DNA from: a phage
Length of the DNA: 64,000 nt
Assembly (NCBI GenBank): GCA_018175075.1
Contig: GCA_018175075.1_4100.1
Reading direction: 5' to 3' (one strand)
Shown: positions 10,060 through 53,777 of the stretch, piece after piece
Position numbering within the stretch: position 1 is the first letter of the stretch
How the letters are laid out: every line of letters starts with the position of its first letter
Notes under the pieces: generated by a model
What the model was told of the DNA's origin: nothing
The model's input: the letters and a program-made list of their open reading frames with translations, nothing else
The model's database searches: none
Program-made: the position numbers and the translations under genes

Positions 10060-10069
10060 TAAAACAAAA

Positions 10070-24955: not shown

Positions 24956-24965
24956 AAATTCCTCC

Positions 24966-26145: not shown

Positions 26146-26153
26146 ATTCCCTC

Positions 26154-27329: not shown

Positions 27330-27399
27330 ATTTCCTCCTTTATTCATTATACTATATTTAATCAAAAAGAAAAGCCAGTACTCTGTACTGGCCTATATT
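27330..27399 (-). promoter_or_regulatory. RCC1-array cassette: hairpin + promoter + SD
   Basis: same ~70-bp cassette. Confidence 0.6.
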
Positions 27400-28137: not shown

Positions 28138-28210
28138 AATTCCCTCCTTTATTCATTATAATATATTTAATACAAAAAAGAAAAGCCAGTACTCTGTACT
28201 GGCTTTTACA
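28138..28210 (-). promoter_or_regulatory. RCC1-array cassette: hairpin + promoter + SD
   Basis: same ~70-bp cassette. Confidence 0.6.
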
Positions 28211-29401
28211 TTACAATTGTCTAGGTGTATCCAGTACATATCTATTTGTACGAGGACCACCATCATCATGCGTTCCGGTTGAATATATATTTTTCATATC
28301 AGCAGTTAGGAAAGTACGATACGAACCGCGATATATTTTAATTTTATCATACATAGAATATGTTATTCCTGACGGCAATGGACATGCAGTAAATTTACCA
28401 ATGGTAACATTAGAACCAACACCTAATGTACCAGCATAACCACTCGCATTTAAACCAGTTGCATATACACCTGTACTCGTAACTAGTATACTAGATTGTG
28501 ATGCATATCCAGTATGGATTGAATAATAAGTTCCTGATGGTAATGTAGTACTATTATTCCCTAATACTGCTAGTGCTGTACTATTCGTAGTGTTATTACC
28601 CCATGCCCCATTATTAGCTAATCCACCAACTAGAAACTGACGTGCTCCTGTATTTGGATTCTCCACTAAAGCACTGACAGCACCAAATGAACAAACAGTA
28701 TATTGTAATGTTTTTGTATATGTGGTACTTGGCTTATACAAAGTATATTCATTAAATGGTGTCCATGTGGTACTAGTACTTATGCCAGATGTACTACCAC
28801 CAATATATAAATTATTTTGTGTATCAAAAAACATTGCACAGTAATTTGTTGACTGTATTTGTGCAATATCTACATCTGGTGTTACCGCTTTAACAAATGA
28901 ACCATCTGATATTTGATAAGTAGTTCCTGTACCATCTGCGAATTGTCTAGCACTATTCCACCCTGTACTCCATATTGTATTATTATCCATTAAGAAAGTA
29001 AACCACGTAGTACCTGCATACATCTGTTTAATTGAAGTACTTGAACTTTGTGTGTACAAATTTTCAATATATTGGTTATAACTTAAAAATGATGTAGTAC
29101 TAGTTTCTAAACCAATATGACTACCATATCCACAATAAAAATAATTTAAGTCATTATCTTGTACTAACAAAGTTCCTTGTGTCATCCAGCAATCTTTGAC
29201 ATTTTCTCTAATTAATGTCCACGACCTTACTGCATTATTATTTCCTCTACCAAACTTCCCATAACTATTACTGCCTCGTGCGTATAGTTGACCGTCGGTA
29301 TAAAGTACAACAACCTCAGTATCAGTTGGTATTATTTTCTTAATTTGTAGTGGTACAGGCACAATATTCCCATAATTCATCATTCTTGCAAAAGGTAACA
29401 T
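28211..29401 (-). CDS. RCC1-like beta-propeller protein with MLPF leader
   Basis: MLPFARMMNYGNI; SNSYGKFGRGNN, GYAGTLGVGS. Confidence 0.8.
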   Translation of the reverse strand: MLPFARMMNYGNIVPVPLQIKKIIPTDTEVVVLYTDGQLYARGSNSYGKFGRGNNNAVRSWTLIRENVKDCWMTQGTLLVQDNDLNYFYCGYGSHIGLETSTTSFLSYNQYIENLYTQSSSTSIKQMYAGTTWFTFLMDNNTIWSTGWNSARQFADGTGTTYQISDGSFVKAVTPDVDIAQIQSTNYCAMFFDTQNNLYIGGSTSGISTSTTWTPFNEYTLYKPSTTYTKTLQYTVCSFGAVSALVENPNTGARQFLVGGLANNGAWGNNTTNSTALAVLGNNSTTLPSGTYYSIHTGYASQSSILVTSTGVYATGLNASGYAGTLGVGSNVTIGKFTACPLPSGITYSMYDKIKIYRGSYRTFLTADMKNIYSTGTHDDGGPRTNRYVLDTPRQL

Positions 29402-29472
29402 AATTCCCCTCCTTATTCATTATACTATATTTAATACAAATAAGAAAGCCAGTATCAAGTACTGGCCTATAT
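29402..29472 (-). promoter_or_regulatory. RCC1-array cassette: hairpin + promoter + SD
   Basis: same ~70-bp cassette. Confidence 0.6.
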
Positions 29473-30642
29473 TTAAACTGGCGAATCTAATATAAATTCT
29501 AAACTACTAATGCCACCATATGTGACATCTGTTCCCGTGCTATATACAAAATTACCATCAGTTATATAAGTTCGGTTATAACTACCTGCCATCTGTGACT
29601 TACTATAATCAAACCCATCAGGTACGATTGCTTTGGTATATACTAATGCATTAGTAGATGTACCAATACCTAACATACCAGCTTGTGTAGATTGATTGTA
29701 GCCGCAACAATATATACCATCTGTTGTAGCAATAACTTGGTTATAATATGAAGTATTGTTAGCAATGCTTACTACATCACCAGGTGGCATTAGTGATGCT
29801 GTTTGTACCTCAAATGCTCTATAATCTTTGAGAGAACCATCTTTCCCATCTGCTTGTGCACCAAATATTCTTGAACCACCATTTGCGATGATAGTTTTAC
29901 CAGTGGGATCAGTGCCTATTGCCATTGCCATTGAAGTACCATTATTCACATAGTACTTTATATTAATTGTATTACTTAAGCTGGTAGGAGCACCATAATA
30001 TATATTATATAACTTACTTCCTGAACTTGTAACTGCATTGACTCTTCCTGTATAAAATAACCATCCTTGGTTTGTAACATAACCGTGCATTAAATTACTT
30101 GCAAACAATTTAACAGGTAATTGATTTGCTGCGGTAGGAACAGTACTTTTGACGAATCTACCAGAAACATGGTTAATTGTTGTCCCATCACCCAACTGAC
30201 CATCCGACCCTACTCCAGTACTCCATATTGTTTGGTCTGATAGTAACACACTTGTAGTCTGATAACTAACGGCTATATCTAATATTGGTAATGTTAATGT
30301 ATTGAATATAGGCATAGCAGATGTCCATATTGATACTCCTGACCCTTTCATACCAACAGTTGTTGAACTTCCACTGTACCATATTTCATTATTGCTTTTC
30401 TTAACAACTATCGACGTGGCACCCATCCAAAAATCTTCAACACCAGAAGTACTAAAAGTCCATGTAGTAACAGTATTTTTGTGACCTAAACCCAAAATAC
30501 CATATGCATTATCACCACGCACATATAAATCACCACTGTTTGTTAAAACAGCAACATTATAGTTGTTAGCAAGTATTTTTTTAATATTTGGTTTATCAGG
30601 TGCAATATTCCCGTACTTAAACATCCTCGCAAAAGGTAACAT
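29473..30642 (-). CDS. RCC1-like beta-propeller protein with MLPF leader
   Basis: MLPFARMFKYGNI; DNAYGILGLGH, GSDGQLGDGT, TQAGMLGIGT. Confidence 0.8.
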   Translation of the reverse strand: MLPFARMFKYGNIAPDKPNIKKILANNYNVAVLTNSGDLYVRGDNAYGILGLGHKNTVTTWTFSTSGVEDFWMGATSIVVKKSNNEIWYSGSSTTVGMKGSGVSIWTSAMPIFNTLTLPILDIAVSYQTTSVLLSDQTIWSTGVGSDGQLGDGTTINHVSGRFVKSTVPTAANQLPVKLFASNLMHGYVTNQGWLFYTGRVNAVTSSGSKLYNIYYGAPTSLSNTINIKYYVNNGTSMAMAIGTDPTGKTIIANGGSRIFGAQADGKDGSLKDYRAFEVQTASLMPPGDVVSIANNTSYYNQVIATTDGIYCCGYNQSTQAGMLGIGTSTNALVYTKAIVPDGFDYSKSQMAGSYNRTYITDGNFVYSTGTDVTYGGISSLEFILDSPV

Positions 30643-30711
30643 ATTTCCTCCTTATTCATTATACTATATTTAATACAAATAAGAATGCCAGTATCAAGTA
30701 CTGGCATTATG
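30643..30711 (-). promoter_or_regulatory. RCC1-array cassette: hairpin + promoter + SD
   Basis: same ~70-bp cassette. Confidence 0.6.
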
Positions 30712-31821
30712 TTATTTTGGTAAATCAATTTTAGTAAAGACTGCAACATCTGCACTTGCACCTGGAATGGCGTAATACGATCCAGTACTATATACATTCC
30801 CGTCTTTGGTTAATAATGATGTTAATCCGTCACTAAAAGCAACATCACTAATCTCACTAACTTCTACAGGTAATTGTAAATTAGCAGCACTATAGATAGC
30901 ACCCGTTTGAGAATTGTTTAATCCCAAACCACGGTTTCCCCCAATACCTTTCTGATATGCACTAGTTAATATAATTTGCGTAGCCGTGCTTGTTGCCTCT
31001 GAATTTGTCATAAACAAAGGTGAATTATTAGGTAAAGTACTTACAGGAACTGCTTTGAATGTAGTTGAATCTGAACTAAGAAAGTTTGGAGTTGTACCAC
31101 ATGTGAAATATGATGTACCATTATAGTAATTGAGTGTATGTCCACCAATAGCTGCATCTATTACACCAGAACTACGCAGTCCCCAAATGTTAACTTGTGT
31201 TCTGTTCCCTGTGCCATGTAATCCACGGTCATTCCACCCTGAACTATATAACTTATTATCTATGCTAATATACATACTATCATTAGGAGTAGACATAACT
31301 TTACGCACATTAGAAGCACATAGTGTTAATGTATATATTGATGAAGAACCAATCCCCAATACACCACGGTATCCATTAGCCCCAGCACCATAGAGTACTG
31401 AACTTGAACTTAGTACAAATATTACACCACTATTGCATACAATATTAGCAATTTGATTCACTGGTATTGTATTTGTAAACCACTCGGTTCTATCAACTAA
31501 TGTAGTACTGTAAGAAGTAGTTGTAGAAGATGTGAACCAGTACGTTTGACCTGATGTCCATATCGTATTATCATTTTTAATAATAACAAGTGTTCGTCCT
31601 CCAGTGAAAAAATTAGAAACATCTGCACTTACTAATATCCATGAAGATACCGTGTTGGTATTACCATTTCCAGATTCACCACCTTGATTTCTGCCTATGT
31701 AATACAATTCATGTGAATCAGTCAATACGAATTGACCTTGAGTAGAAGCACCAACTTTAATTATATTTTTAGGACCAGAGGTAATATTCCCATAATCAAA
31801 TAGTCTTACAAAAGGTAACAT
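30712..31821 (-). CDS. RCC1-like beta-propeller protein with MLPF leader
   Basis: start at MLPFVRLFDYGNI behind GGAGGG; RNQGGESGNGNT, NGYRGVLGIGS. Confidence 0.8.
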   Translation of the reverse strand: MLPFVRLFDYGNITSGPKNIIKVGASTQGQFVLTDSHELYYIGRNQGGESGNGNTNTVSSWILVSADVSNFFTGGRTLVIIKNDNTIWTSGQTYWFTSSTTTSYSTTLVDRTEWFTNTIPVNQIANIVCNSGVIFVLSSSSVLYGAGANGYRGVLGIGSSSIYTLTLCASNVRKVMSTPNDSMYISIDNKLYSSGWNDRGLHGTGNRTQVNIWGLRSSGVIDAAIGGHTLNYYNGTSYFTCGTTPNFLSSDSTTFKAVPVSTLPNNSPLFMTNSEATSTATQIILTSAYQKGIGGNRGLGLNNSQTGAIYSAANLQLPVEVSEISDVAFSDGLTSLLTKDGNVYSTGSYYAIPGASADVAVFTKIDLPK

Positions 31822-31829
31822 ATTCCCTC

Positions 31830-33032
31830 CTATTGTTGCCATAACTGCGTTGGCATTAATGTTAGTGTAGTAATACTATAAGTGCCATCAGGCAATCTAC
31901 CACCATTACCATTCCAGCCACCACATGCATATAATTTATAATCTTTAGTAATTATTATGGTTCTGCTCCAATCTTTAGATGCCATAAGAACATTGTCATA
32001 ACCACCACTTATTGCACTAAGATTAAAAATAGCCCAAGTCTTAACTAATGTATTAGTTCCATTACCTTCTTGACCATATGAGTTAGGACCACTACTTCTA
32101 ACATATGGTGCGTATTGTGCCATAGGTGAACCAATTGATGCATTTCCCATATTACTTGGACAAATAAAATTACTGTACTTACTTACATCAACCGTGACCG
32201 ATGTATTCCTAATTGGTGTTAGCTGATTTACTGATGTAGTCGTACCATTACCAGCTTGTCCAGTATTGTTAGACCCACTATAATATACAGGCCCACCAGT
32301 AGTAAACCACCAAGTAACATTGTATGTAGTACTAATATGTTCTACATTACTAATCACGAATTTGTTCAAATATACAACAGAACTACCACCACATCCACTT
32401 TCACCAAAGTTATCCTTACCACAAAACCATGCATCTTTATTTGATTTAATATAGTGCGTTCCTTGTAATGAACATGCCATATCTATAACTTCACCCATAT
32501 TAGTCATAACTGTTAGTGTAGGGATTGAATTTTGATTACCCGACCCACATTCACCATTAGTATTTTTTCCACACGCAATTACTCTACCATCTGTTAATAA
32601 TATTCTAGTACTTTCACCTATATATACACTCTTGATCATATTAGCCATTACGCCAATTTTATTAAATGAAGCAGTAACATCAGTCCATGTTCTCAAATAA
32701 CCACTAACAGGTGTTGCATCTCCATAATCAGAAAATGCACCCACCGACCCAGTGTAGTATATTTTATTATCCAAATCAACCATCAATGAACCATGAACAC
32801 CCAGCCAATAGGCTGCACAGTTACGTGCAAGTACAGTAAATGACGGAACTGCTGCTGAATTCCCAAGACCAAATTGAGACATGTTATTACTACCATAACC
32901 ATATAAAGTATTAGTTGGGCTATGTAGATACATACAGTTTGTATAATGTTGTTGTAAAACATCTGAGAACTCTATAGGTTCTGGCCCTGGTGCAATATTA
33001 CCGTACTTAACCATTCTAGCAAAAGGTAACAT
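31830..33032 (-). CDS. RCC1-like beta-propeller protein with MLPF leader
   Basis: MLPFARMVKYGNI; NNMSQFGLGN, NNTGQAGNGT, NSYGQEGNGT. Confidence 0.8.
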   Translation of the reverse strand: MLPFARMVKYGNIAPGPEPIEFSDVLQQHYTNCMYLHSPTNTLYGYGSNNMSQFGLGNSAAVPSFTVLARNCAAYWLGVHGSLMVDLDNKIYYTGSVGAFSDYGDATPVSGYLRTWTDVTASFNKIGVMANMIKSVYIGESTRILLTDGRVIACGKNTNGECGSGNQNSIPTLTVMTNMGEVIDMACSLQGTHYIKSNKDAWFCGKDNFGESGCGGSSVVYLNKFVISNVEHISTTYNVTWWFTTGGPVYYSGSNNTGQAGNGTTTSVNQLTPIRNTSVTVDVSKYSNFICPSNMGNASIGSPMAQYAPYVRSSGPNSYGQEGNGTNTLVKTWAIFNLSAISGGYDNVLMASKDWSRTIIITKDYKLYACGGWNGNGGRLPDGTYSITTLTLMPTQLWQQ

Positions 33033-33104
33033 ATTTCCCTCCTTTATTCATTATATTATATTTAATCAAAAATAAAAGCCAGTACTTGAGTACTGGCATA
33101 TCAA
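33033..33104 (-). promoter_or_regulatory. RCC1-array cassette: hairpin + promoter + SD
   Basis: same ~70-bp cassette. Confidence 0.6.
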
Positions 33105-34271
33105 TTACGAAAAACGTGGATCATCAAGAACAAACACGGTACTACTTGGACCACCTTGTGTGGTGACAGCACTAGTACTGTAAAGAAAGTTACCATCTGT
33201 CATATAAGTTCTACGATTCGTACAAATAACTCTTACTTTATTCATATCGATATCAGGATTAGGTAATGGACATGAAGTATACACTGATACATCAGTACTT
33301 GTTCCTATTCCCAGCGTACCTTCATTTGTGGTTGAACCGCTATTCAACCCACTAGCATATATACCACTGCTTGTAATAACAAAAGTGGCGTAGAATGGAG
33401 AACCTTCACCTATATTTAATTTAGTTCCAGGTGGTTGTCTTGCCGCAGCAACCGCACCATATGCTTTCCCACCAGATGTGGCAAGATTACCAAGAGCACC
33501 ATACTGTTGTTGTCCACCATTATACACTGTGTTAGTGCCATCACTGTTAGTGTGGATACCAATAGAATTATAGTTACTGTTGCTATATACTAAAGCGGCA
33601 TTAGAAGTAACTGTATTTCGTGTATATACTTTATATTGTTGGGTAAAATTACCACTAGTGGACGTACCCTGTACAGTTCCAGTGTAGTATATATATCCGT
33701 CTGTACCAATGAATGAGTGCATAACACTACCTGCAAAAATTTTTTCTGGAGTAACACCTGACGGTATTGTTGATTGTACAAATCTACCCACTACATTTGT
33801 TGTTGTATTATTTCCCAATTGACCGGAGTCACCATAACCACTTGACCATATGGTATTGTTCTCAAGAAGAACACTAATTGATAATCTTGATAAAGCTATT
33901 TCTTTAACATCACTTTCTAATGTATCAAAAAATGAAGTACAATTTGTCCAAGTGTTCACTACGCTAGAACTAACACCAATTTGTTTATTATCACCAGAAC
34001 TATAATAATTCCCATCATATGTTTGTATAAGTATAACAGAACCACCAACCCATACTTTATCAACTGAACCAAACGTTCTTGTCCATGTGGTAACTATATC
34101 CCCGCTATTATTACCCAATCCAAAGCAACCACTACTATCTACGCCTCGTACATATAAATCTCCTGAAGTCATCAGAACTGCACAGAATGATTGTGCACCT
34201 TTAACATCTTTAATTGGCTCTGGTTCAGGTGCAACATTTCCATAATCAAACATTCTAACAAAAGGTAACAT
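33105..34271 (-). CDS. RCC1-like beta-propeller protein with MLPF leader
   Basis: start at MLPFVRMFDYGNV; DSSGCFGLGNN, GDSGQLGNNT, NEGTLGIGT. Confidence 0.8.
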   Translation of the reverse strand: MLPFVRMFDYGNVAPEPEPIKDVKGAQSFCAVLMTSGDLYVRGVDSSGCFGLGNNSGDIVTTWTRTFGSVDKVWVGGSVILIQTYDGNYYSSGDNKQIGVSSSVVNTWTNCTSFFDTLESDVKEIALSRLSISVLLENNTIWSSGYGDSGQLGNNTTTNVVGRFVQSTIPSGVTPEKIFAGSVMHSFIGTDGYIYYTGTVQGTSTSGNFTQQYKVYTRNTVTSNAALVYSNSNYNSIGIHTNSDGTNTVYNGGQQQYGALGNLATSGGKAYGAVAAARQPPGTKLNIGEGSPFYATFVITSSGIYASGLNSGSTTNEGTLGIGTSTDVSVYTSCPLPNPDIDMNKVRVICTNRRTYMTDGNFLYSTSAVTTQGGPSSTVFVLDDPRFS

Positions 34272-34319
34272 ATTTCCTCCTTTATTCATTATATCATATT
34301 TACCCCATAAACAAAACCC

Positions 34320-34348
34320 TTGACAACCTTCCAGTACTGGTGTACTAT
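34320..34348 (+). promoter_or_regulatory. sigma70-type promoter of the small-gene array (divergent from RCC1 array)
   Basis: TTGACA-N17-TACTAT, CAGTACTGG in the spacer. Confidence 0.55.
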
Positions 34349-34373
34349 AGAAGGAATATAAGGAGAACTACAC

Positions 34374-34601
34374 ATGACAAATACTCTTAAGTACTACATT
34401 AATACTCTAAATGAACTAGAGTACGCGAAGTTTCTCGCGGATAGTTCGTGGCTAATTGAGCTAAAAAATTATAATAGTCCAGGATGCACCCTTATGATGA
34501 ACAATGCAATTGATACCCTCATTGTGAGTATTTTACACAGCAACATCTGCGGGGATAGAAACAAACAATTATCAAAAATCTTAGTACTGCTATCTATATG
34601 A
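34374..34601 (+). CDS. small protein, YY/LIYRY tandem family
   Basis: 75 aa; AAGGAG SD after the 34320 promoter; MTNTLKYYINTL... Confidence 0.6.
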   Translation: MTNTLKYYINTLNELEYAKFLADSSWLIELKNYNSPGCTLMMNNAIDTLIVSILHSNICGDRNKQLSKILVLLSI

Positions 34602-34801
34602 ATATCGAACAGTACTACATCGATGCACTACCAACAAAAGGTCTACGTGAAAGCCTACTGCATACACAAACTAATTTCAAACACCTCAAACGTAGCCCTA
34701 AACTCCTGAACTCGTACAGGAATAATAACATAAGAAATGCTTTACAAGGGGTAGAATGTATGCAATACTATTACATCCTTACCCTATTAATCGAGTACTA
34801 A
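34598..34801 (+). CDS. small protein, YY/LIYRY tandem family
   Basis: MNIEQYYIDALP...LTLLIEY; ATGA coupling. Confidence 0.6.
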   Translation: MNIEQYYIDALPTKGLRESLLHTQTNFKHLKRSPKLLNSYRNNNIRNALQGVECMQYYYILTLLIEY

Positions 34802-34802
34802 T

Positions 34803-35012
34803 ATGAATACTGAACATAAAGAATTCTACACCAAATACCTTAGCAACGAAGAACAATTGTTTCTAAGGAGTGTATCACCTGTAAGTACCAATACTCAATT
34901 CGGTAGAGATTGCTTTAATAATTGTATACGTAGTACTCTAGAAGCAATCGAATGCAATAACAAAAATATTATGTACTCAGGTTTAATAGGACTAATATAT
35001 TTCTATGAATAA
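34803..35012 (+). CDS. small protein, YY/LIYRY tandem family
   Basis: MNTEHKEFYTKYL...GLIYFYE; close paralog of 38188. Confidence 0.65.
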   Translation: MNTEHKEFYTKYLSNEEQLFLRSVSPVSTNTQFGRDCFNNCIRSTLEAIECNNKNIMYSGLIGLIYFYE

Positions 35013-35199
35013 TCATAAAGATTTCTATTGTAGTAAACTACCCAAACAAGAACAGCTATCATTCTCTTTAGCACCACCTATGAGAAAGGATAATCTGTAT
35101 TATAATTACGATTTCAGGATGGTGACACGTTATGCAATAGAACATCAGTTCCCTGAAACTAAGTACCGCTCTATCCTGAACCTCATCTTTAAGTTCTAA
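35005..35199 (+). CDS. small protein, YY/LIYRY tandem family
   Basis: MNNHKDFYCSKLP...; paralog of 38390. Confidence 0.6.
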   Translation: MNNHKDFYCSKLPKQEQLSFSLAPPMRKDNLYYNYDFRMVTRYAIEHQFPETKYRSILNLIFKF

Positions 35200-35251
35200 A
35201 AGGTACACCAGGGACCGAGTACTTTAATATAGTAAGGCTAATTACATTATA

Positions 35252-35437
35252 ATGAATCATATAAGCTACTACTACCAACAACTATCCGACAGAGACAAGT
35301 ACAGTCACAACTCCCATGTGTGGTACTACAAACGCGGCAGTATAAGAGACAAACAACATTACTTCTGTATTTCTATTAAAGAAGCACTGACAACTAAGTA
35401 CACGTACCGAGCAGTACTTAAACTTATTGAAATGTAA
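35252..35437 (+). CDS. small protein, YY/LIYRY family (VLKLI subgroup)
   Basis: MNHISYYYQQLSD...YRAVLKLIEM. Confidence 0.6.
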   Translation: MNHISYYYQQLSDRDKYSHNSHVWYYKRGSIRDKQHYFCISIKEALTTKYTYRAVLKLIEM

Positions 35438-35447
35438 AGAGAATACT

Positions 35448-35630
35448 ATGAACATTGAATTGTACTTAAGTAAATTACAGCCTGGCGATAGATTCATCTA
35501 CAATAAGTTCGAATTCAACTACAAGAACGGGAGCAACAAATATCGTCGAGGATACCTATATACAAGCACAAGAGATGCACAAAACGAAAAGTACACATAC
35601 AGAGAAGTACTTAAACTAATCTCTATTTGA
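35448..35630 (+). CDS. small protein, YY/LIYRY family (VLKLI subgroup)
   Basis: MNIELYLSKLQP...EKYTYREVLKLISI. Confidence 0.6.
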   Translation: MNIELYLSKLQPGDRFIYNKFEFNYKNGSNKYRRGYLYTSTRDAQNEKYTYREVLKLISI

Positions 35631-35638
35631 GGTAATAT

Positions 35639-35824
35639 ATGAATACATTTGAGTACTATACCAATAAACTATCTATGCCTGAAAGATCTCATCTCTATGT
35701 GTGGAGAAATGCGTATAAAAGCGGCAATAAACTTATACAAAGAAATTCCCTTACAGTGTGTACAAATTTAATTAAAGCAGAGTACCGCACATATATTGAA
35801 GTACTGAAACTAATCTCTATCTAA
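35639..35824 (+). CDS. small protein, YY/LIYRY family (VLKLI subgroup)
   Basis: MNTFEYYTNKLS...YIEVLKLISI; GAGG SD. Confidence 0.6.
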   Translation: MNTFEYYTNKLSMPERSHLYVWRNAYKSGNKLIQRNSLTVCTNLIKAEYRTYIEVLKLISI

Positions 35825-35832
35825 GGTACTCT

Positions 35833-36012
35833 ATGCAAGAATTCTATATCTATAAACTTCAGCACAAAGATAGATACAACTATAATAAATTCCAAAGGTA
35901 CTACACAGTCGGGAACAAAAGAGATAAAAAACGATACTTTCTATCATGTACAGTAGAAGCACAAAACGAAAAGTACACGTACAGAGAAGTACTGAAACTC
36001 ATCTCTATGTAA
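35833..36012 (+). CDS. small protein, YY/LIYRY family (VLKLI subgroup)
   Basis: 59 aa, below track cutoff: MQEFYIYKLQ...EKYTYREVLKLISM; AAGG SD. Confidence 0.55.
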   Translation: MQEFYIYKLQHKDRYNYNKFQRYYTVGNKRDKKRYFLSCTVEAQNEKYTYREVLKLISM

Positions 36013-36020
36013 GGAATAAT

Positions 36021-36200
36021 ATGCAAGAATACTATATAGAACACATAAGCATTAAAGACCGTTTCATGTACGACACCTTCGTGAAGTACTACAACCTGGC
36101 AACTAACAGTACTAAAAATATTAATCTCAATAGCTGCATTCATCACGCACTAACAAAAGATAATCCCTTCAGGGAAATCCTCGCACTAGCATCTGTATAA
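36021..36200 (+). CDS. small protein, YY/LIYRY family (VLKLI subgroup)
   Basis: MQEYYIEHISIK...FREILALASV; AAGGA SD. Confidence 0.6.
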   Translation: MQEYYIEHISIKDRFMYDTFVKYYNLATNSTKNINLNSCIHHALTKDNPFREILALASV

Positions 36201-36210
36201 AGGAAACCAA

Positions 36211-36870
36211 ATGAAACTTAATGCACACAGCAAACAATACCTTAAGCACTTTAAGTACCTCAACAGTATTCAAGCAGAATCTTTTACACCAGCATATACG
36301 TATCACCCAAATGTACTAAAGAAACGAAATAAAAAGAAAAAATCCAGAAATGTTCTCGTATCTAAGAACCTCAAATCGTACTTGAAGAAAAATAATATAG
36401 CTCTTGCTTTTATTAATATCTATAATACTGATTTAAAAGTATTGAGTACTAATACCAGCACAAAAGCACTAAAGAATGCATCTATCTATATACACATGGA
36501 TAATATCCCGTGCACTATAATTCTATCTTTCGGGAATGTATACTTCTTCGGGAATTGTAATAGCACCCATGATATCAGTACTGCACAATTCCAAATCGGC
36601 GATATGTACTGCATGGGTTCAGAAAAAATACACGATAACATGCACTTCTTCCAAAAGCAACGTACTAACGAAACTGATACAGTACTGCAATTCCTCAAAG
36701 AACTAGAACACAAAGAATTATCCGAGGAAGAAGAATTCATGTACAGTACTGTAATCGATAATCCAGAACTCTATAAAAACGCGTACAAACTAACAAAACA
36801 TGTACAGGAACTTATCAGTACTGATAAGAAATTTCATCACCTCATTACGTATATTTCAAACTATGTATAA
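36211..36870 (+). CDS. hypothetical protein, basic N-terminus (interrupts the small-gene array)
   Basis: 219 aa; AAGGA SD. Confidence 0.6.
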   Translation: MKLNAHSKQYLKHFKYLNSIQAESFTPAYTYHPNVLKKRNKKKKSRNVLVSKNLKSYLKKNNIALAFINIYNTDLKVLSTNTSTKALKNASIYIHMDNIPCTIILSFGNVYFFGNCNSTHDISTAQFQIGDMYCMGSEKIHDNMHFFQKQRTNETDTVLQFLKELEHKELSEEEEFMYSTVIDNPELYKNAYKLTKHVQELISTDKKFHHLITYISNYV

Positions 36871-37045
36871 AGAATACTACAAAGATAAAATCCCAATGCA
36901 TCTACAACACCATATACCAAACGTTGCATTGGGTATCAAAGATCACGCAAAGATAATGTTCCAACAATGTACTAAGTACACGCTCATATACGATGATAAT
37001 CCATATATGCTGTACTACGTAGTAATGCTAACATTCAGGTACTAA
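36863..37045 (+). CDS. small protein, YY/LIYRY tandem family
   Basis: MYKEYYKDKIPMHL...VVMLTFRY. Confidence 0.6.
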   Translation: MYKEYYKDKIPMHLQHHIPNVALGIKDHAKIMFQQCTKYTLIYDDNPYMLYYVVMLTFRY

Positions 37046-37046
37046 T

Positions 37047-37226
37047 ATGAATACTTATAAAGAATTCTACCTCTCGTACCTTAATTCCGATATAGTAACA
37101 TCCAATACATTCAGTACTAAAATTATCTATAATGAATTAATGAAAGAATGTATTAAAGGTGCTATTAACCCTAAAGATACGTATGACTTGTACTATGCAG
37201 TACTAACCCTTGTTTTCACGAAATAA
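37047..37226 (+). CDS. small protein, YY/LIYRY tandem family
   Basis: 59 aa, below track cutoff: MNTYKEFYLSYL...AVLTLVFTK. Confidence 0.55.
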   Translation: MNTYKEFYLSYLNSDIVTSNTFSTKIIYNELMKECIKGAINPKDTYDLYYAVLTLVFTK

Positions 37227-37234
37227 CACATAAT

Positions 37235-37426
37235 ATGAATAACCACAAAGAATACTACATAGAGAAACTCCCAATGTATCTCCAACACCTTGTACCAACA
37301 GAACCATTGGGTATAGAAAAAAACTACGAAAAAGACTACTTCATTCAGTGCACTAAATCCTCGATATATATTGAAGACTATAATCGAGTACTGTATCACA
37401 TCCTTTTACTAATATATAGGTACTAA
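37235..37426 (+). CDS. small protein, YY/LIYRY tandem family
   Basis: MNNHKEYYIEKLPMYL...ILLLIYRY. Confidence 0.65.
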   Translation: MNNHKEYYIEKLPMYLQHLVPTEPLGIEKNYEKDYFIQCTKSSIYIEDYNRVLYHILLLIYRY

Positions 37427-37427
37427 T

Positions 37428-37610
37428 ATGCACAAAGAATACTACACACAATTTCTCCCCAGCATTTTTGAACACTACGCCAGATACAAAGTCCCTATGG
37501 ATAACGATTTGGCAGTACTGGGATTCAATAACTGCATAGAACGAAGTATAGAAAATAGTAGTAGTTATGACCAGCTATATAACACTATCCTACTTATATT
37601 CAGGTACTAA
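37428..37610 (+). CDS. small protein, YY/LIYRY tandem family
   Basis: MHKEYYTQFLP...TILLIFRY; AGGTACTAATATG junction. Confidence 0.65.
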   Translation: MHKEYYTQFLPSIFEHYARYKVPMDNDLAVLGFNNCIERSIENSSSYDQLYNTILLIFRY

Positions 37611-37611
37611 T

Positions 37612-37800
37612 ATGCATAAAGAATACTACACAAAATATTTCCCAATGTACCTCAGTACTAATCTATTAGATAAACCTCGCGGTATCAATGCACAAAACGA
37701 TAAAGTGTATTTTACTATGTGTACTAAAGCATGTATACTAGATTTTGACAGCTACCATCGAGTACTGTATCATACCCTGTACCTAGCTTTCGTATTCTAA
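37612..37800 (+). CDS. small protein, YY/LIYRY tandem family
   Basis: MHKEYYTKYFPMYL...; same junction. Confidence 0.65.
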   Translation: MHKEYYTKYFPMYLSTNLLDKPRGINAQNDKVYFTMCTKACILDFDSYHRVLYHTLYLAFVF

Positions 37801-37809
37801 AAGAACAAT

Positions 37810-37995
37810 ATGCATAAAGAATTCTACTTAAGCCATCTCGATCTAAACTCCCAAATGCTTATACCACTAATCCCAATAGATATCAAGGATAAGAAAAATA
37901 CCGAACAATTCATTTACCATACACAGTGTGCGATCACCCCAAATTACATTCCATATGAATTGTACTACATTATCGCCCTAATATATAGGTACTAA
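37810..37995 (+). CDS. small protein, YY/LIYRY tandem family
   Basis: MHKEFYLSHL...IIALIYRY. Confidence 0.65.
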   Translation: MHKEFYLSHLDLNSQMLIPLIPIDIKDKKNTEQFIYHTQCAITPNYIPYELYYIIALIYRY

Positions 37996-37996
37996 T

Positions 37997-38182
37997 ATGC
38001 ATAGAGAATACTACACACAATTTGTTAAAGGGAACTACAAACATGCCGTACCCAGAACCCCTTTAAATTCTCATGACCCAAGTACTATATTCTTGTTTAA
38101 TGACGCAATACGTACAGTACTCAATACTAAAGATGAAGATGTGCAGTACGTATTCTTACTATTACTTATATACAGACACTAA
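37997..38182 (+). CDS. small protein, YY/LIYRY tandem family
   Basis: MHREYYTQFV...FLLLLIYRH. Confidence 0.65.
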   Translation: MHREYYTQFVKGNYKHAVPRTPLNSHDPSTIFLFNDAIRTVLNTKDEDVQYVFLLLLIYRH

Positions 38183-38187
38183 CTAAT

Positions 38188-38397
38188 ATGAATAAAGAAC
38201 ATAAAGAATTCTACTCCAAATACATAAGCCCCTCAGAACAAATGTTTCTAAGAACTACTCCACCTTTAAGTACTAATACATTTTTCGGCAGAGTATGCTA
38301 CAATAATTGTATTCAAATGACTTTAAACGCAAACGAAGATGGTAACAGTACTAACCTGTACTCAGGTATCATAGGTATACTATTCCTGTATGAATAA
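38188..38397 (+). CDS. small protein, YY/LIYRY tandem family
   Basis: MNKEHKEFYSKYI...GILFLYE; paralog of 34803. Confidence 0.65.
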   Translation: MNKEHKEFYSKYISPSEQMFLRTTPPLSTNTFFGRVCYNNCIQMTLNANEDGNSTNLYSGIIGILFLYE

Positions 38398-38581
38398 TTA
38401 CAAAGACTTCTATTTGAATACACTACCTACTGTACTTTCTCTAAGTGCTCAATGTAAAATCCCGCTGGATAATGCTTACGCCAGATATAGCTATTCCATA
38501 ACTGTTAATCGATGTATAGAGAATCATTGCAGTACTAACACTAGTACTATCATATTAATTAATAGAGAATACTATGTATAA
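38390..38581 (+). CDS. small protein, YY/LIYRY tandem family
   Basis: MNNYKDFYLNTLP... Confidence 0.6.
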   Translation: MNNYKDFYLNTLPTVLSLSAQCKIPLDNAYARYSYSITVNRCIENHCSTNTSTIILINREYYV

Positions 38582-38765
38582 AAACTTCTATATAAGTAAA
38601 CTAAAAGAAAATGAACAAGTATGGATTAGATCTATAATTCCACTGGCATTTAATAGATATGCATTTAACAGATGTACCGAGATTGCTATAGACCCTTATA
38701 ATATTAAAGAGAATGTACAGTATAATCAGTACTACTATATCTTAATGCTTATATATAGAAAGTAA
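38574..38765 (+). CDS. small protein, YY/LIYRY tandem family
   Basis: MYKNFYISKLKE...YILMLIYRK; last gene of the array. Confidence 0.6.
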   Translation: MYKNFYISKLKENEQVWIRSIIPLAFNRYAFNRCTEIAIDPYNIKENVQYNQYYYILMLIYRK

Positions 38766-38782
38766 TTAAACACATAGAGACA

Positions 38783-38872
38783 GGGGAAGCTCCTAGTGAA
38801 CAACCTTTATGTACAGGCGAATTGTTAAAATTCAGCCTGGACAAATGCGATCACTAGGATTCTCCCCAGGCT
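38783..38872 (+). other. long-range inverted repeat / structured element after the small-gene array
   Basis: GGGGA..TCCTAGTGA (38783-99) pairs with TCACTAGGA..TCCCC (38851-67); AGCCTGG/CCAGGCT alternative stem. Confidence 0.4.
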
Positions 38873-39403
38873 AAACCCCGTAATCATAGGTAGTCATAAG
38901 TAATCATATATAAACATTTATATGAGCACCGTAGAATCACAGAATGATTATATATGATTCAGTACTGATTAGTATAGACAAGATTGCTCAAGAATGCACG
39001 GAAATGTGTGTGAATGATTCAGTACTGATATCCCACTAAGTAGGCAGAGGAAGTCTGCCGTACTTTGTAGTTTCCAAGCTCCTTTTCCATTTTGCAAATT
39101 ACATCAAATGTAATCAAAAGTAATCACACAATGATTAGTACTGAATTATTACTTTCACCTTAATTACAATTACCCTTTTACCCTTCGGGGTAAAATTCCA
39201 TTACCCCTTGAGGCTCCAGCAAAAAGTTGGTTAGTACTCCATCCTAAATCTCGATCCTAAAAATTTTGGAGTACCTATGAAATAAAAGTTGGATCTTCGA
39301 AAGTTGAAATTTACGTTGGGACGTTTATGATTTGTGGGATATAATGATGTTTGTAGTCGGGTAGTTCTCAAGAATATCAGTACTGAATGATGAAAGAAAG
39401 CTA

Positions 39404-39431
39404 TTGACTTTATGATTCAGTACTGTATAAT
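39404..39431 (+). promoter_or_regulatory. orphan promoter in the ORF-free hub
   Basis: TTGACT-N16-TGTATAAT-GTTTTACAT, same class as the mini-gene promoters. Confidence 0.55.
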
Positions 39432-39437
39432 GTTTTA

Positions 39438-39550
39438 CATAGAGAGATGAGTTGCCGCAAACAATTCATTCACTCTACTTCCTGTCGTGAGACAGTACAG
39501 AAAGATAGTTCCTCCTATGGGTGGTACATCTTTTAGAACCTCTTTTTTCG
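39438..39550 (+). ncRNA. candidate non-coding transcript (or 29-aa peptide mRNA, ORF 39447..39536)
   Basis: runs from the orphan promoter to T6 at 39543-48; contains CTGTC-GTGA-GACAG hairpin. Confidence 0.3.
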
Positions 39551-39819
39551 TAATATGAACAGTACTGATATTAACAGAATGGTGTCAGTACTGATTTTAA
39601 TTTAATGCATTATGCCACCAGCACAAGCTGGTGGATTCCCTCTAACAGTATTCAGTACTACATGATGGTCTTCATCCTCCTAGGGTAACATAGTGAGGGC
39701 TATGATGGCAGTACTGAATACTCCCTTTCAAAAGATAGATCTATGGTATAGTACTGACGGATTTTGGGCGTAGTTACCCTGGATGGATTTTGGGCGTAGA
39801 TATGTCTAGCCCTCCAGAA

Positions 39820-39950
39820 GTCTGGAAGTAAAGATGGCTATCCATCTAGACGGCTAAACGGCTAGATTTCTGGATGGCTGGATGGCTAGACGTTTGGACG
39901 GCTAAACGGCTAGATGGTTACACGTCTGGAAGTATAGACGGCTAAATCAA
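39820..39950 (+). repeat. iteron-like direct repeats
   Basis: GACGGCTAAACGGCTAGAT x2 (39849, 39897) + GACGGCTAAAT (39938); GGATGGCT x3; GTCTGGAAGTA x2; A/T tract follows. Confidence 0.6.
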
Positions 39951-40094
39951 AATTTTATTTTGTTTTTTCCAATAGTTCCCCTACCGCGTGGGGATAGTTT
40001 CCCCGCAGTATCTGGTGTTAGATTTTTCTGAATCTGGAATCATTATCTTATAAACTGGGGGCAATGTCAACGGCCTGGACGGATATTTTTAAAA

Positions 40095-40195
40095 ATTTTT
40101 TCAGTACTGAATTTTGGGCGTAACTATGCACCCGGTGGGCTGGAGTCTTTCTCGACTTGATGGAACTATTATACAGTACTGGAAAAATAAAGCAA
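40095..40195 (-). ncRNA. GGGTGC-core promoter-proximal RNA element, copy 1 (with promoter)
   Basis: TTGCTT-N16-TATAAT then ..GUCGAGAAAGAC..AGCCCACCGGGUGC..UACGCCCAAAAU. Confidence 0.35.
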
Positions 40196-40319
40196 TACCC
40201 TGGATGAAAAAAGTTTTAATTAATTTGCTTGCCATCCTGGGCCGGACTATGGTACTATAATTCAGTACTGAGAAAGTGCGTTAACCTGCTAGGGTGCGGG
40301 AGTGTATCCTTTTTTTATA

Positions 40320-40410
40320 TCTTGAATTTTGGGCGTAATTCCGCACCCTCTGGGGTTTCCGCTTTCTCGCGTCTATGTAGTAATTATACGCTTTTTCAGG
40401 ATCAAGTCAA
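40320..40410 (-). ncRNA. GGGTGC-core RNA element, copy 2 (with promoter)
   Basis: TTGACT-N16-TATAAT then ..CGCGAGAAAGCG..CCCCAGAGGGUGC..UACGCCCAAAAU. Confidence 0.35.
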
Positions 40411-40561
40411 TACCTAAAAACAAATAATTGAAAATAATTTAACGCGTTTAAACGGCCCGTAACGCCCTGGAATGATTAGAATGGTGCAAATGTATAGCTT
40501 AGGTGTATTAATGCGTTAGAATGCGTCTGAGGCCGTTTTATGGGGTGTAGTAGTGATTTGG

Positions 40562-40654
40562 TTGATTCAGTACTGAATAATAGTACTCCTATATAGAAAG
40601 ATAGTTCCCCTGGATTGATTCAGTACTGAATAATAGTACTCCTATATAGAAAGA
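40562..40654 (+). repeat. tandem direct repeat, period 53 bp
   Basis: TTGATTCAGTACTGAATAATAGTACTCCTATATAGAAAGA at 40562 and 40615. Confidence 0.7.
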
Positions 40655-40685
40655 AAACTATTTTAAAAGTACATGTAGAAAGTAC

Positions 40686-40745
40686 TTGCACCGTACTGAT
40701 AAAAGCGTATAATGTTTTACATCGAGAGCGGGAACACTTCCCGCT
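40686..40745 (+). promoter_or_regulatory. mini-gene promoter + 5'UTR hairpin unit
   Basis: AGTACTTGCAC..TATAATGTTTTACATC + AGCGGGAA-CAC-TTCCCGCT. Confidence 0.6.
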
Positions 40746-40768
40746 ACACTTTAAAAGAGATGAAAACG

Positions 40769-41131
40769 ATGGCGACTCAAATCAATAAAATCATGCTTAA
40801 CCTGGTAAACTTCCGCGATGAGATGAAAGGTCTTCCGGCTGAAACTGTAAAAATTCACATTGCAGCTTATCGGGAACTTATTGCAATGTTGCCGCTTAAG
40901 CGTGAACAATACGCCGCTACTTTGATGCTGGATTCAATGATCCATGTAATGATCTCAAATGATTTAACGATGGTTTATCAGTACATGGGAGAAAATTTCG
41001 CGGTGTGTAGTAAGCCAGTACCAGGGATGGCAACTACTGAGGAATTGCACGGTTTAAATTTAAAGCAAGATGCATGGGATAATATGCCTCGTTTCCTGGT
41101 ATGGGCTGACAGTGGCAAAATTTACAAATAA
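40769..41131 (+). CDS. hypothetical protein
   Basis: 120 aa from MATQINK; the track start 40712 lies inside the -10 box. Confidence 0.6.
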   Translation: MATQINKIMLNLVNFRDEMKGLPAETVKIHIAAYRELIAMLPLKREQYAATLMLDSMIHVMISNDLTMVYQYMGENFAVCSKPVPGMATTEELHGLNLKQDAWDNMPRFLVWADSGKIYK

Positions 41132-42137: not shown

Positions 42138-42167
42138 GCAGTTTACAAATCTTTACAATTGCCGGTA

Positions 42168-42260
42168 TTGACTTATTTTGTCAGTACTGGCATAATGTAT
42201 TCATTGGCAGATAAGCCGTAGCCCATAGGGTGCGGGAGTGTATCTATAGAAAAATTAGTT
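42168..42260 (+). ncRNA. GGGTGC-core RNA element, copy 3 (with promoter)
   Basis: TTGACT-N17-CATAAT then ..GGCAGAUAAGCC..GCCCAUAGGGUGC. Confidence 0.35.
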
Positions 42261-42340
42261 TAGTATAGTTACAATTGTGCACCCGGTGGGTTAGCTGTTG
42301 TCATGGGGTATATTATGCCAGTACTGGATAGTGCTGTCAA
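42250..42340 (-). ncRNA. GGGTGC-core RNA element, copy 4 (with promoter), convergent with copy 3
   Basis: TTGACA-N17-CATAAT then ..ACCCACCGGGUGCACAAUUGUAACUAU. Confidence 0.35.
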
Positions 42341-42384
42341 TACTTTTTTAATATTCAGTACTGAAAACTATTTTTAAAAAGTAC

Positions 42385-42530
42385 TTGCAAACTATGTTTA
42401 AAGGCGTATAATGTTTTACATCAGGACGGGGAACGAAATAAGTAACTTCCCGTTAAGTAGCCCAGGAGTAAGGCACACGAAAAACTCCCCTGATAAAATA
42501 GTTTGACAATTGTTTTTAAAAGCGTATAAT
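42385..42530 (+). ncRNA. conserved ~80-nt leader RNA L1 between tandem promoters
   Basis: TTGCAA..TATAAT, AUCAGG..ACGGGGAA/UUCCCGU..UAAGUAG..GGAG/CUCC..CCUGAU, then TTGACA-N16-TATAAT. Confidence 0.4.
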
Positions 42531-42562
42531 ACTTACATCAACTACTGAATGAGGGTTACAAA

Positions 42563-44411: not shown

Positions 44412-44633
44412 ATGGCTAATATCACTACTCTTTCCCAACTGGAAGCACTGGTTAAATCTATGCGGGAACATGCCGACAAAATCGGCGTACAAGATCCAGC
44501 CGTTTGCTTCTGCGACGAAATGAATGATGATACACTGGTAATAGCAGAAGTCCAGGACGTTTCTAACTATTCCTCGCGTTACACTGGCGGCGTAGCAAAT
44601 AAAGGTGACTTCTGTTTATACCTTACAAAATAA
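44412..44633 (+). CDS. hypothetical protein
   Basis: 73 aa from MANITT; promoter+hairpin; terminator follows. Confidence 0.65.
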   Translation: MANITTLSQLEALVKSMREHADKIGVQDPAVCFCDEMNDDTLVIAEVQDVSNYSSRYTGGVANKGDFCLYLTK

Positions 44634-44638
44634 CAACG

Positions 44639-44668
44639 CGGGGAGATAATAACTCCCCGTTACTTTTT
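44639..44668 (+). terminator. intrinsic terminator
   Basis: CGGGGAG-ATAATAA-CTCCCCG + TTACTTTTT. Confidence 0.6.
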
Positions 44669-44768
44669 CAGTACTGAATCATTTAATAGACGGATCTCGG
44701 CACCCGGTGGGTTAGTGACTGTTTCGTCTTGATGTAGTAATTATGCCAGTACTGGATGCACTTGTCAA
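44639..44768 (-). ncRNA. GGGTGC-core small RNA candidate, copy 5 (promoter to hairpin)
   Basis: TTGACA-N17-CATAAT (44763-44740); ..GACGAAACAGUC..ACCCACCGGGUGC..; ends at CGGGGAG/CTCCCCG hairpin. Confidence 0.4.
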
Positions 44769-48263: not shown

Positions 48264-48314
48264 TCAAAACATCGTTAGCGGTCGTTTTAGGCCGCTTATA
48301 TTGGGGATTATACC

Positions 48315-50335: not shown

Positions 50336-50395
50336 AAATATTATCACAGTACTATTGACATAGTTTGATAGTACTGACATAATAACTTTTATCAA
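50334..50395 (+). repeat. type-2 ~60-bp promoter repeat
   Basis: same repeat; -10 CATAAT. Confidence 0.6.
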
Positions 50396-50418
50396 CTACA
50401 CTACTAAGGAATTAAAAA

Positions 50419-50598
50419 ATGGCTATCATCGCAAAAACTGAAATCGTTGGTCTGGATTCTATCATCATGACGTTTGAAGATCAAAAAGGTATGTATGTAG
50501 TTTCATATGGTGATTATGTTCGGGAGTATGAAACGGTAGACGAAGCCTTTGAAAGTTATATTCGCCAGGTGAATAAAGCATACGACGACTACCGCTAA
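50419..50598 (+). CDS. hypothetical protein (paralog of 47288..47500)
   Basis: 59 aa, below track cutoff: MAIIAKTEIVG...; type-2 promoter repeat. Confidence 0.55.
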   Translation: MAIIAKTEIVGLDSIIMTFEDQKGMYVVSYGDYVREYETVDEAFESYIRQVNKAYDDYR

Positions 50599-50655
50599 AA
50601 TATATTACCAGTACTATTGACAACGTTTGATAGTACTGTATAATAAGTTTTATAA
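50597..50655 (+). repeat. type-2 promoter repeat (variant)
   Basis: ..CCAGTACTATTGACAACGTTTGATAGTACTGTATAAT. Confidence 0.55.
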
Positions 50656-50688
50656 ACAGTAGTTAACTTAACCTAAGAGAGAAATAAA

Positions 50689-50832
50689 ATGATCGCACTG
50701 GATTCATTCATCGACGCAGTACTGGCAAAAACTGGCGAGGATCTGACCGCAGAACAATACGCAATGATCGAGCAATGCCAGCAAGACGGTAAATCGGTGA
50801 AAGATACTGTTAAGATTATCCGCAAGATGTAA
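50689..50832 (+). CDS. 47-aa small protein
   Basis: below track cutoff; AGAGAG SD-like; MIALDSFIDAVLAKTG... Confidence 0.45.
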   Translation: MIALDSFIDAVLAKTGEDLTAEQYAMIEQCQQDGKSVKDTVKIIRKM

Positions 50833-50937
50833 TATTATAGCCCACTGGTTAACGCTGGTGGGCTTTAATTCATTACCCTATACAATGCCAGTACTAAACC
50901 GTTTATCTCGTTAGAATGCATTACAGGACGTTTGACA

Positions 50938-53317: not shown

Positions 53318-53463
53318 AAGAATTCTTATTCGAAGTAGTGTTTCAAGGTGTCGGTAGTAACCAACTGATTCGATCAAGTGGTTACAATGTCAACCAGGCA
53401 TGGAATAACATTAAACAAATGTACCCGAACGCTATCACCTATCGCAACCCGAAAGAAGTTTAA
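53314..53463 (+). CDS. 49-aa small protein
   Basis: ATGA coupling; MKEFLFEVVFQGVGSNQ... Confidence 0.45.
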   Translation: MKEFLFEVVFQGVGSNQLIRSSGYNVNQAWNNIKQMYPNAITYRNPKEV

Positions 53464-53477
53464 AAATAATTGAAAAA

Positions 53478-53560
53478 GGGATTGACTCCGGTCAGTCCCT
53501 TTGCTATTATATACGCATAGAAACAAATCAGCCCACCGGGTGCATAAATGTATCTATTGT
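53478..53560 (+). promoter_or_regulatory. fused terminator-promoter hairpin + GGGTGC-core element, copy 8
   Basis: GGGATTGAC-TCCG-GTCAGTCCC; TTGACT-N17-TATTAT; ..GCCCACCGGGUGC.. Confidence 0.55.
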
Positions 53561-53600
53561 TTGCTGGTGGCTAGTACTGAAAACTATTTTAAAAAAGTAC

Positions 53601-53744: not shown

Positions 53745-53777
53745 ACTCACATCAACCACTGATAAGGAAACATAAAA

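Follow-up and report, generated by a model that had tools for sequence, protein, structure and literature searches.

What is the role of a 1.95-kb stretch of phage DNA that holds no credible open reading frame (ORF) and is packed with repeats, palindromes and promoters? The stretch occupies positions 38766-40711 of the window analysed here, 64,000 nucleotides from GenBank assembly GCA_018175075.1, and an initial annotation made from the letters alone had proposed it to be a cis-acting control region, such as a replication origin, a packaging or partition site or a DNA-entry checkpoint. We find that it spans the position corresponding to the physical left end of the genome in close relatives. 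It is probably a hub of conserved non-coding sequence that marks the left boundary of a direct terminal repeat (DTR) of ~21.4 kb, and the functional counterpart of the Repeat Region 3/injection-stop region of the T5 family.

At 84-98% identity, 46 phage records match the region with its flanks; they belong to jumbo phages of Escherichia and Salmonella in the genus Asteriusvirus (PBECO4, 121Q, G17, fEgEco12 and others). By this match we assign the window to Asteriusvirus, as DNA of a PBECO4/121Q-type Rak2-like jumbo phage of E. coli. DTRs of ~20 kb have been reported for Rak2-like myophages, and the repeat and its ends are already published for close relatives. The published reports on CBB, fEgEco12, G17 and Sharanji give repeat lengths only, and the non-coding hub, the cut-site motif, the arrays and the Chi pattern described below are absent from these papers when they are searched for these terms. 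A wider literature search returned no report of AGTACT in jumbo phages, nor one of Fur or MetJ boxes in the terminal repeats of phages. Conservation within the genus was judged across eight Asteriusvirus relatives (G17, 121Q, A4, UE-S1 and EJP2 among them), and that between genera across five Rak2-like genera: Asteriusvirus, Alcyoneusvirus (Muenster), Eneladusvirus (pEa_SNUABM_12, hereafter pEa12), Mimasvirus (XbC2) and the Munch group.

The physical left end and its cut site

By match to the records and ends of relatives, the physical left end and the left edge of the DTR fall between 39038 and 39039. The independently deposited records of ELP-22, fEgEco12 and G17 (reversed), all of which hold both copies of the repeat, start or stop exactly at 39039, and the ends of fEgEco12 were determined with PhageTerm and confirmed by restriction digests. 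The ends are thus placed in the window through the experimentally determined ends of close relatives. The right boundary of the repeat corresponds to 60492 in fEgEco12 and G17 and to 60364 in ELP-22. On this placement the hub consists of 273 bp of unique DNA and the first 1673 bp of the repeat, and the virion DNA would start at 39039 with 1.67 kb of non-coding sequence. Of the roles first put forward, that of a packaging or terminus site is strongly supported by this coincidence of DNA end and repeat boundary.

The cut-site motif TTCAGTACTGATATSCCACTA^AGT (the caret marks the cut) is also found at the left end of Klebsiella phage Muenster, a member of a different genus whose ends have been defined with PhageTerm. 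Common to both genera is GATATSCCACTA^AGT at the cut, preceded by TTCAGTACTG repeats. At the left cut Muenster reads TTCAGTACTGATATGCCACTA^AGT and the window TTCAGTACTGATATCCCACTA^AGT, with the joint form TTCAGTACTGATAT(C/G)CCACTA^AGT; at the right cut Muenster reads GGCT^TAGCACTT and the window ACCT^TAGCGACTT, with the joint form CT^TAGC(G)ACTT. The unique-side flank carries two to three copies of TTCAGTACTG, a number that differs among relatives, together with GTAATCA repeats. Of the five GTAATCA copies originally counted at 38880-39130, four are exact and one is the variant GTAGTCA. Within the 150 bp ahead of its own cut Muenster has seven AGTACT sites. On the repeat side of the window's cut, the DTR opens with an interrupted palindrome of 27 nt (fold z = -2.95), and in five records carrying both repeat copies an array of MetJ-type operator boxes (metboxes) lies ~753 nt from the start of the record.

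The hub contains the longest ORF-free gap of the window (1463 + 294 bp; the next longest is 596 bp), and a check of ORF conservation found no ORF in the region that is kept across the eight relatives, in line with the initial annotation, which had singled it out as the only long stretch without a credible ORF. Three small ORFs were considered as genes and rejected: a 99-aa minus-strand ORF is broken in four of the eight relatives, a 62-aa ORF with a TTG start meets an 8-nt indel in the corresponding region of Muenster, and a mini-ORF downstream of promoter P2 is frame-shifted or lacks its ATG in relatives. Searches of the whole window with Rfam at gathering scores and with a tRNA scan gave no matches. 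In all five genera the initial 1.3-1.8 kb past the left end is free of annotated genes. The compositional boundary noted earlier is also borne out: the GC content goes up from 0.325 to 0.388, and at ~39 kb the GC skew reverses its sign, with the cumulative skew minimum at ~38-39 kb.

Comparison of the leaders of the five genera revealed seven modules in identical order. From the end inward these are the terminal ~20 nt, where every genus but Munch has AAGTC at +13 to +17; a ~45-bp palindromic element; a strong rightward sigma-70 promoter with an untranslated transcript; GATTTTGGG(C/T)GTA repeats; a tandem array; the block ATTTTTCCATTAGYTCCCCTWCCGCGT; and a convergent-promoter cassette with a nearly invariant TTCCGCACCCTCTGGGGTYTCCGCTTTCTCGCGTCTATGTAGTAATTATAC. 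This fixed order and the lack of a conserved ORF support the view that the hub is a cis-acting non-coding control region. Within Asteriusvirus its right-hand ~700 bp hardly vary, and this holds even for EJP2, with its overall identity of 78%.

Operator-like array, Chi sites and promoters

The repeats first described as iteron-like form an array with a period of 8 bp, and the units of this array match the operator boxes of the methionine repressor MetJ. Scoring followed the published half-metbox matrix and thresholds (Augustus and Spicer 2011), in which an operator has at least two adjacent in-phase 8-bp boxes, each reaching at least a quarter of the consensus score, and a total of at least the consensus score. 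The 14 contiguous boxes at 39832-39943 sum to 102.8 bits against a threshold of 12.58 and are the only qualifying site in the window, while shuffled sequence yields at most three boxes. As a positive control, 8 kb of E. coli K-12 DNA returned only the true operators metJ/metB and metF, with four boxes each. In ~149 kb of other phage DNA, arrays of at least four boxes are confined to the hub position. Differences in array length among relatives are multiples of 8 bp, and in Muenster and Munch clusters of Fur-box matches (up to 16/19) are found at the array position instead. A scan of the hub for DnaA, Fur and LexA boxes found none, and the DnaA box TTWTNCACA, paired within IRD'/IRC'-type inverted repeats in the T5-type region, has no match in the hub or in the hubs of the four other genera. 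All but one of the hosts on record belong to orders that have MetJ.

Arrays of this type recur 10-900 bp from DNA ends across three phage families. The annotated injection stop signal (iss) of T5 (9140-10149) contains a Fur-box array at ~9540-9725, within which the calculated shear point, 9618, falls. Among T5-like phages, Aeromonas phage AhSzq-1 has 28 metbox-type units in the region equivalent to the T5 iss, Vibrio phage Pontus has 15 such units, and many Vibrio records carry metbox-type arrays 10-600 nt from the record start. The T7-like phages PGT2 and KPV811 have them 38-121 nt from an end. Among IMG/VR contigs, five of the eight stretches with such arrays lie less than 0.8 kb from a contig end.

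The hub had been described as holding 19 AGTACT sites, a count that stands for 38766-40711; the hexamer is, however, not a local feature. With 283 copies against 22 expected (13x) AGTACT is the most over-represented hexamer of the window, and the hub exceeds the window background only ~2x. In each of the five Rak2-like genera the leader is likewise enriched 20-27x for it, and this genome-wide and clade-wide over-representation rules it out as a local signal. The hexamer is absent from the T5 repeat (0 versus 3.6 expected) and from window positions 60493-64000. Concentrated in the hub is the 10-bp palindrome TCAGTACTGA, with 8 of its 16 exact window copies. In the repeat, early promoters are of the type AAAGTACTTGCA-N17-TATAAT or have AGTACTG immediately ahead of the -10 element. 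Found throughout the genome and the clade, AGTACT forms part of the early promoters and of the cut site, and promoters alone do not account for it because many copies lie inside coding sequence. Ahead of the hub, at 34000-38765, runs a series of apparently paralogous plus-strand ORFs of ~60 aa with negative GC skew, several of which have AGTACT ~30 nt upstream of the next start codon.

The window has 15 copies of Chi (GCTGGTGG), where 0.69 would be expected. Eleven of these sites are inside the repeat (39039-60492), which is ~50-fold enriched, and ~7 of the 11 look non-coding, as judged from their sequence context. The Chi nearest the left end (39615, minus strand) is paired in a hairpin with an inverted partner and has the orientation that suits RecBCD entry from the left, and all seven sites of the right half face the way that suits entry from the other side, the right, a pattern conserved in ELP-22, fEgEco12 and G17. 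Six of the eight relatives keep the double Chi hairpin, with its loop flipped between ACAA and TTGT, and it is present in Munch too. Three further Chi sequences lie on the coding strand of a repeated minus-strand gene block at 20000-35000, in a stretch rich in ACC/CAC triplet repeats; the annotation of relatives names this block regulator of chromosome condensation (ELP-22), and genes at the equivalent position in Munch are annotated as DNA condensation proteins.

The claim that at least three strong promoters of the hub are not followed by genes was upheld: three sites match the sigma-70 consensus at 11 of 12 positions and several more at 10 of 12. The strong promoters, which face in both directions and lead into no gene, are conserved among relatives as well as between genera. 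Promoter P2 is invariant in the eight relatives and duplicates the promoter and leader of the first DTR gene, and a strong rightward promoter at +270 to +400 is common to the five genera. In three cases the transcripts of hub promoters fold better than shuffles, with weak covariation support for a defined RNA structure. A long-range RNA hairpin considered for the convergent-promoter cassette was not recovered by RNAalifold, which favoured short local hairpins with little covariation. The coordinates of these and the other elements are collected in Table 1.

Table 1. Elements of the hub and of the adjoining terminal repeat, in window coordinates
Feature	Position	Strand	Description
Direct terminal repeat	39039-60492	+	~21.4 kb; small early genes, each with its own sigma-70 promoter
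Unique-side flank of DTR boundary	38766-39038		Hairpin past last small ORF, GTAATCA/GTAGTCA repeats, two AATGATTCAGTACTGAT sites just upstream of cut
Terminase cut site/physical left end (placed by relatives)	39019-39065		TCAGTACTGATATCCCACTA-cut-AGTAGGCAGAGGAAGTCTGCCGTACTT, cut between 39038 and 39039
Palindromic element	39231-39277		~45 bp, AGTACTCCATCCTAAATCTCGATCCTAAAAATTTTGGAGTACC; internal direct repeat ATCCTAAA x2
Rightward promoters P1 and P2	39316-39431	+	P1 39316-39345; P2 TTGACT-16-TATAAT, 39404-39431, AGTACT in spacer
Orphan P2 transcript	39438-39556	+	Predicted non-coding; 3' end provisional; contains invariant CCUCCUGUCGUGAGACAG hairpin; fold z = -2.2
Double Chi hairpin	39615-39634		CCACCAGC-acaa-GCTGGTGG; 576 bp from left end
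Two GGATTTTGGGCGTAG repeats	39756-39802	+	Just upstream of array; further copies at 40111, 40326
Array matching MetJ operator boxes	39832-39943		14 in-phase 8-bp units (AGAYGKCT); published matrix
Conserved block and leftward promoter	39960-40075	-	TTTTTCCAATAGTTCCCCTACCGCGTGGGG; TTGACA-17-GATAAT, 40070-40042, faces array; fold z = -3.2
Promoter cassettes	40128-40410		Leftward 40197-40168; rightward ~40229-40261 with small terminated RNA; leftward 40410-40383
Module with AATGCGTTAGAATGCGTCTGAGGCCGTTTTATGG	40437-40545	+	Nearly invariant in 8 relatives; common to T5 Repeat Region 3 (T5 9346-9380)
53-bp tandem duplication	40562-40667	+	TCAGTACTGAATAATAGTACT; copies at 40562-40601 and 40615-40654
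First DTR gene promoter and 5' leader hairpin	40681-40758	+	AGTACTTGCAC-N17-TATAAT; hairpin GCGGGAACACTTCCCGC; standard early-promoter design, recurring ~19 times in DTR

Every feature reported earlier was found. Both tetraloop hairpins, TACCC-TTCG-GGGTA (~39181) and CTGTC-GTGA-GACAG (~39482), are present, the latter invariant in the eight relatives, and the four direct copies of ATTTTGGGCGTA (39761, 39787, 40111 and 40326) are all exact and found nowhere else in the window. The motif GATTTTGGG(C/T)GTA occurs at the same place in pEa12 and Munch. The stretch around the palindromic element is kept in eight Asteriusviruses, with both ATCCTAAA copies changed to ATCGTAAA in A4 and UE-S1, and in Munch, XbC2 and pEa12 the element lies 75-240 bp from the end. 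As described, the hub also carries a tandem duplication of 53 bp, though at just 1-1.5 copies in G17, 121Q, A4 and EJP2, which marks it as recent and variable.

The promoter cassettes include the inverted repeat AGGGTGCGG/CCGCACCCT; the cassette block is ~68-70% identical in the Klebsiella phages Muenster, RaK2 and K64-1, at an equal distance from the end in Muenster, and has paralogs at ~42155-42335 and ~44560-44760. Further non-coding gaps of the repeat lie at 42138-42562, ~44560-44760, 50336-50931 and 53318-53777, and at least two of them hold paralogous convergent-promoter cassettes (AGGGTGC...GCACCC, with AGTACTGGCATAAT promoters face to face). In several relatives (PBECO4, SD-15_S21, Ecwhy_1 and others) the match to 38700-40800 is spread over 3.2-3.5 kb, which points to a 1.2-1.4-kb insertion or another first gene directly past the hub (window ~40711-40800).

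Possible functions of the hub

Read as the leader of a packaged DNA end, the hub would act at several stages of infection. Late in infection, terminase would recognise the concatemer and cut it at the hub boundary. Following ejection, host RNA polymerase would fire from the promoters of the hub and the DTR, and RecBCD entering at the ends would meet correctly oriented Chi sites, whereupon degradation would give way to recombination between the two repeats. Host MetJ with S-adenosylmethionine (SAM), or Fur in the sister genera, would polymerise on the array and form a nucleoprotein block beside the DNA end. Candidate roles of such a block, which we infer together with the order of DNA entry, are a pause in DNA entry, end protection, transcription insulation or the soaking up of repressor. 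A broader proposal is that long host-repressor operator arrays, with MetJ and Fur interchangeable, are a shared and previously unrecognised end element of Rak2-like, T5-like and T7-like phages, and that the MetJ or Fur coat on the entering DNA is itself the pause, anchor or protection signal; this we regard as conceivable but doubtful. If true, it would give a molecular identity to the T5 injection stop signal, a feature that for decades has lacked an accepted mechanism, and would make genome entry depend on the SAM or iron status of the host.

The arrays could instead be decoys, replicated MetJ (or Fur, LexA or DnaA) boxes that titrate host repressors and so de-repress the methionine/SAM, iron or SOS regulons for the benefit of the phage. 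With 14-36 boxes they greatly exceed natural operators, which have 4, and at one position MetJ and Fur arrays can stand in for each other; T5-family regions also have LexA-box and DnaA-box matches, and a location in the DTR doubles the copy number per virion genome. We nevertheless consider decoys an unlikely explanation, as they leave the recurrent position of the arrays near DNA ends in three families unexplained. It is somewhat harder still to credit that the hub serves early transcription only, as a set of promoters, small RNAs and operators (TCAGTACTGA, ATTTTGGGCGTA and the 8-bp array) for phage regulators whose position at the end is incidental. That AGTACT and TCAGTACTGA stand in promoter spacers and beside -35 and -10 elements throughout the DTR, that the cassettes recur deeper in the repeat and that P2 copies the first gene's promoter and leader would all fit such a role. 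It does not account for a cut site that lies inside the region and is conserved between genera, nor for arrays of the same 8-bp units near the DNA ends of families without detectable shared repeat proteins, which indicate a host factor and end biology.

Least probable among the readings weighed here is a replication origin of the T4/ColE1 R-loop type, in which orphan transcripts would hybridise to AT-rich DNA and prime the leading strand, with the repeats as origin-binding sites. Rak2-like phages are distant T4 relatives, and the gene-less conserved promoters in both directions, their structured untranslated transcripts, the adjoining AT-rich runs and the cumulative GC-skew minimum are what such an origin would have. 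Against it, the hub has no DnaA boxes and, as its array is one of MetJ-box matches, no classic iterons; the skew changes where one gene module gives way to another; the same array types are found at T7-like and T5-like ends, while T5 origins are reported near the genome centre; and the physical end accounts for the position without any origin. For a replication origin, and equally for a partition site, as initially suggested, we found no specific evidence.

Several observations nevertheless weigh against a DNA-end hub of the T5 type. The deposited right end of ELP-22 (…AGTACTGAT) is 128 bp short of the end common to fEgEco12 and G17, and the total of promoter-like matches in the hub is not above shuffle expectation. 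Binding of MetJ or Fur to the array is presumed from box matches: 9 of 17 units have G at position 6 of the box, for which the consensus is T, and a phage-encoded ribbon-helix-helix protein could be the binder instead. XbC2 carries an array and has Xanthomonas as its host on record, and Xanthomonas is not known to have MetJ. Turning to T5, the 34-nt module common to it and the hub is of marginal significance (local score 41 versus a shuffle maximum of 40, 0/200), and no homology was detected between T5 repeat proteins and window ORFs at E <= 0.01. The T5 region lies at the opposite (right) repeat boundary with its module order mirrored, so that order and strand are not simply colinear. The injection-stop analogy is one of architecture only.

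The hub as a non-coding DNA-end region has wider uses and implications. A terminase cut-site motif conserved for the whole giant-phage clade would aid genome finishing and engineering. The non-coding end regions of jumbo phages and T5 relatives appear to use the same building blocks although no homologous repeat-encoded proteins were found, and phages may draw MetJ and Fur, two abundant host repressors, to the ends of their DNA.

Comparison with MetJ operators, T5 and T7

The operators of E. coli MetJ are tandem 8-bp metboxes (consensus AGACGTCT), and the hub array resembles them in its contiguous in-phase units, in CTAG at the junctions and in passing the published per-box and total thresholds. 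It differs in having 14 boxes versus 2-5, in its frequent G at position 6 and in not overlapping a met gene promoter, and its boxes are candidate sites.

The early suggestion that the hub be compared with the injection-stop region of T5 is supported, and beyond analogy, by the array types shared with the T5-family iss/Repeat Region 3 and by the marginally significant 34-nt module. Like the hub, T5 Repeat Region 3 is a long (~1.2 kb) untranslated region, rich in repeats and palindromes, just inside one boundary of a DTR filled with early genes, and it overruns that boundary by ~270 bp, as compared with 273 bp for the hub. Both are more strongly conserved than neighbouring genes, and both have arrays of host-repressor-type boxes, which are of the Fur type in T5 and of the MetJ type in AhSzq-1, Pontus and the hub. 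The module GCGTTAGAATGCG..CGTTTTA is common to the two. Unlike the hub, T5 has DnaA-box and LexA-box matches and lacks any AGTACT, and two-step DNA transfer is documented for T5 only. The two regions are not alignable overall, and blastn-short of the hub against the T5 repeat gave marginal matches only. The resemblance, as far as the sequences allow it to be read, is one of mirrored architecture and shared building blocks, not of colinear homology.

Elsewhere in the repeats, exact or near-exact 20-23-mers are common to intergenic, apparently promoter-proximal DNA of the window (59187-59206 and 48283-48305) and to T5 Repeat Regions 1 and 2 (5020-5039 and 6257-6279), with E = 3e-4 and 1e-3. Near-consensus matches to the LexA (SOS) box lie in T5-like non-coding repeat regions, CTGTATAAATATACAG in T5 (6213 and 9411) and Pontus (position 1304 of the Pontus stretch analysed) and CTGTATATCCATACAG in AhSzq-1 (108639), beside DnaA-box and Fur/MetJ-box matches.

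The left end of T7 offers a second parallel. There too a defined DNA end carries a non-coding leader, in which strong promoters for the host polymerase (A1-A3) precede the first gene, and terminase cuts precisely at the DTR boundaries; the repeat is 160 bp and the leader ~0.9 kb. The hub differs from it in having leftward promoters, Chi sites and a repressor-box array as well, and some T7-like phages, PGT2 and KPV811, carry metbox-type arrays at their ends.

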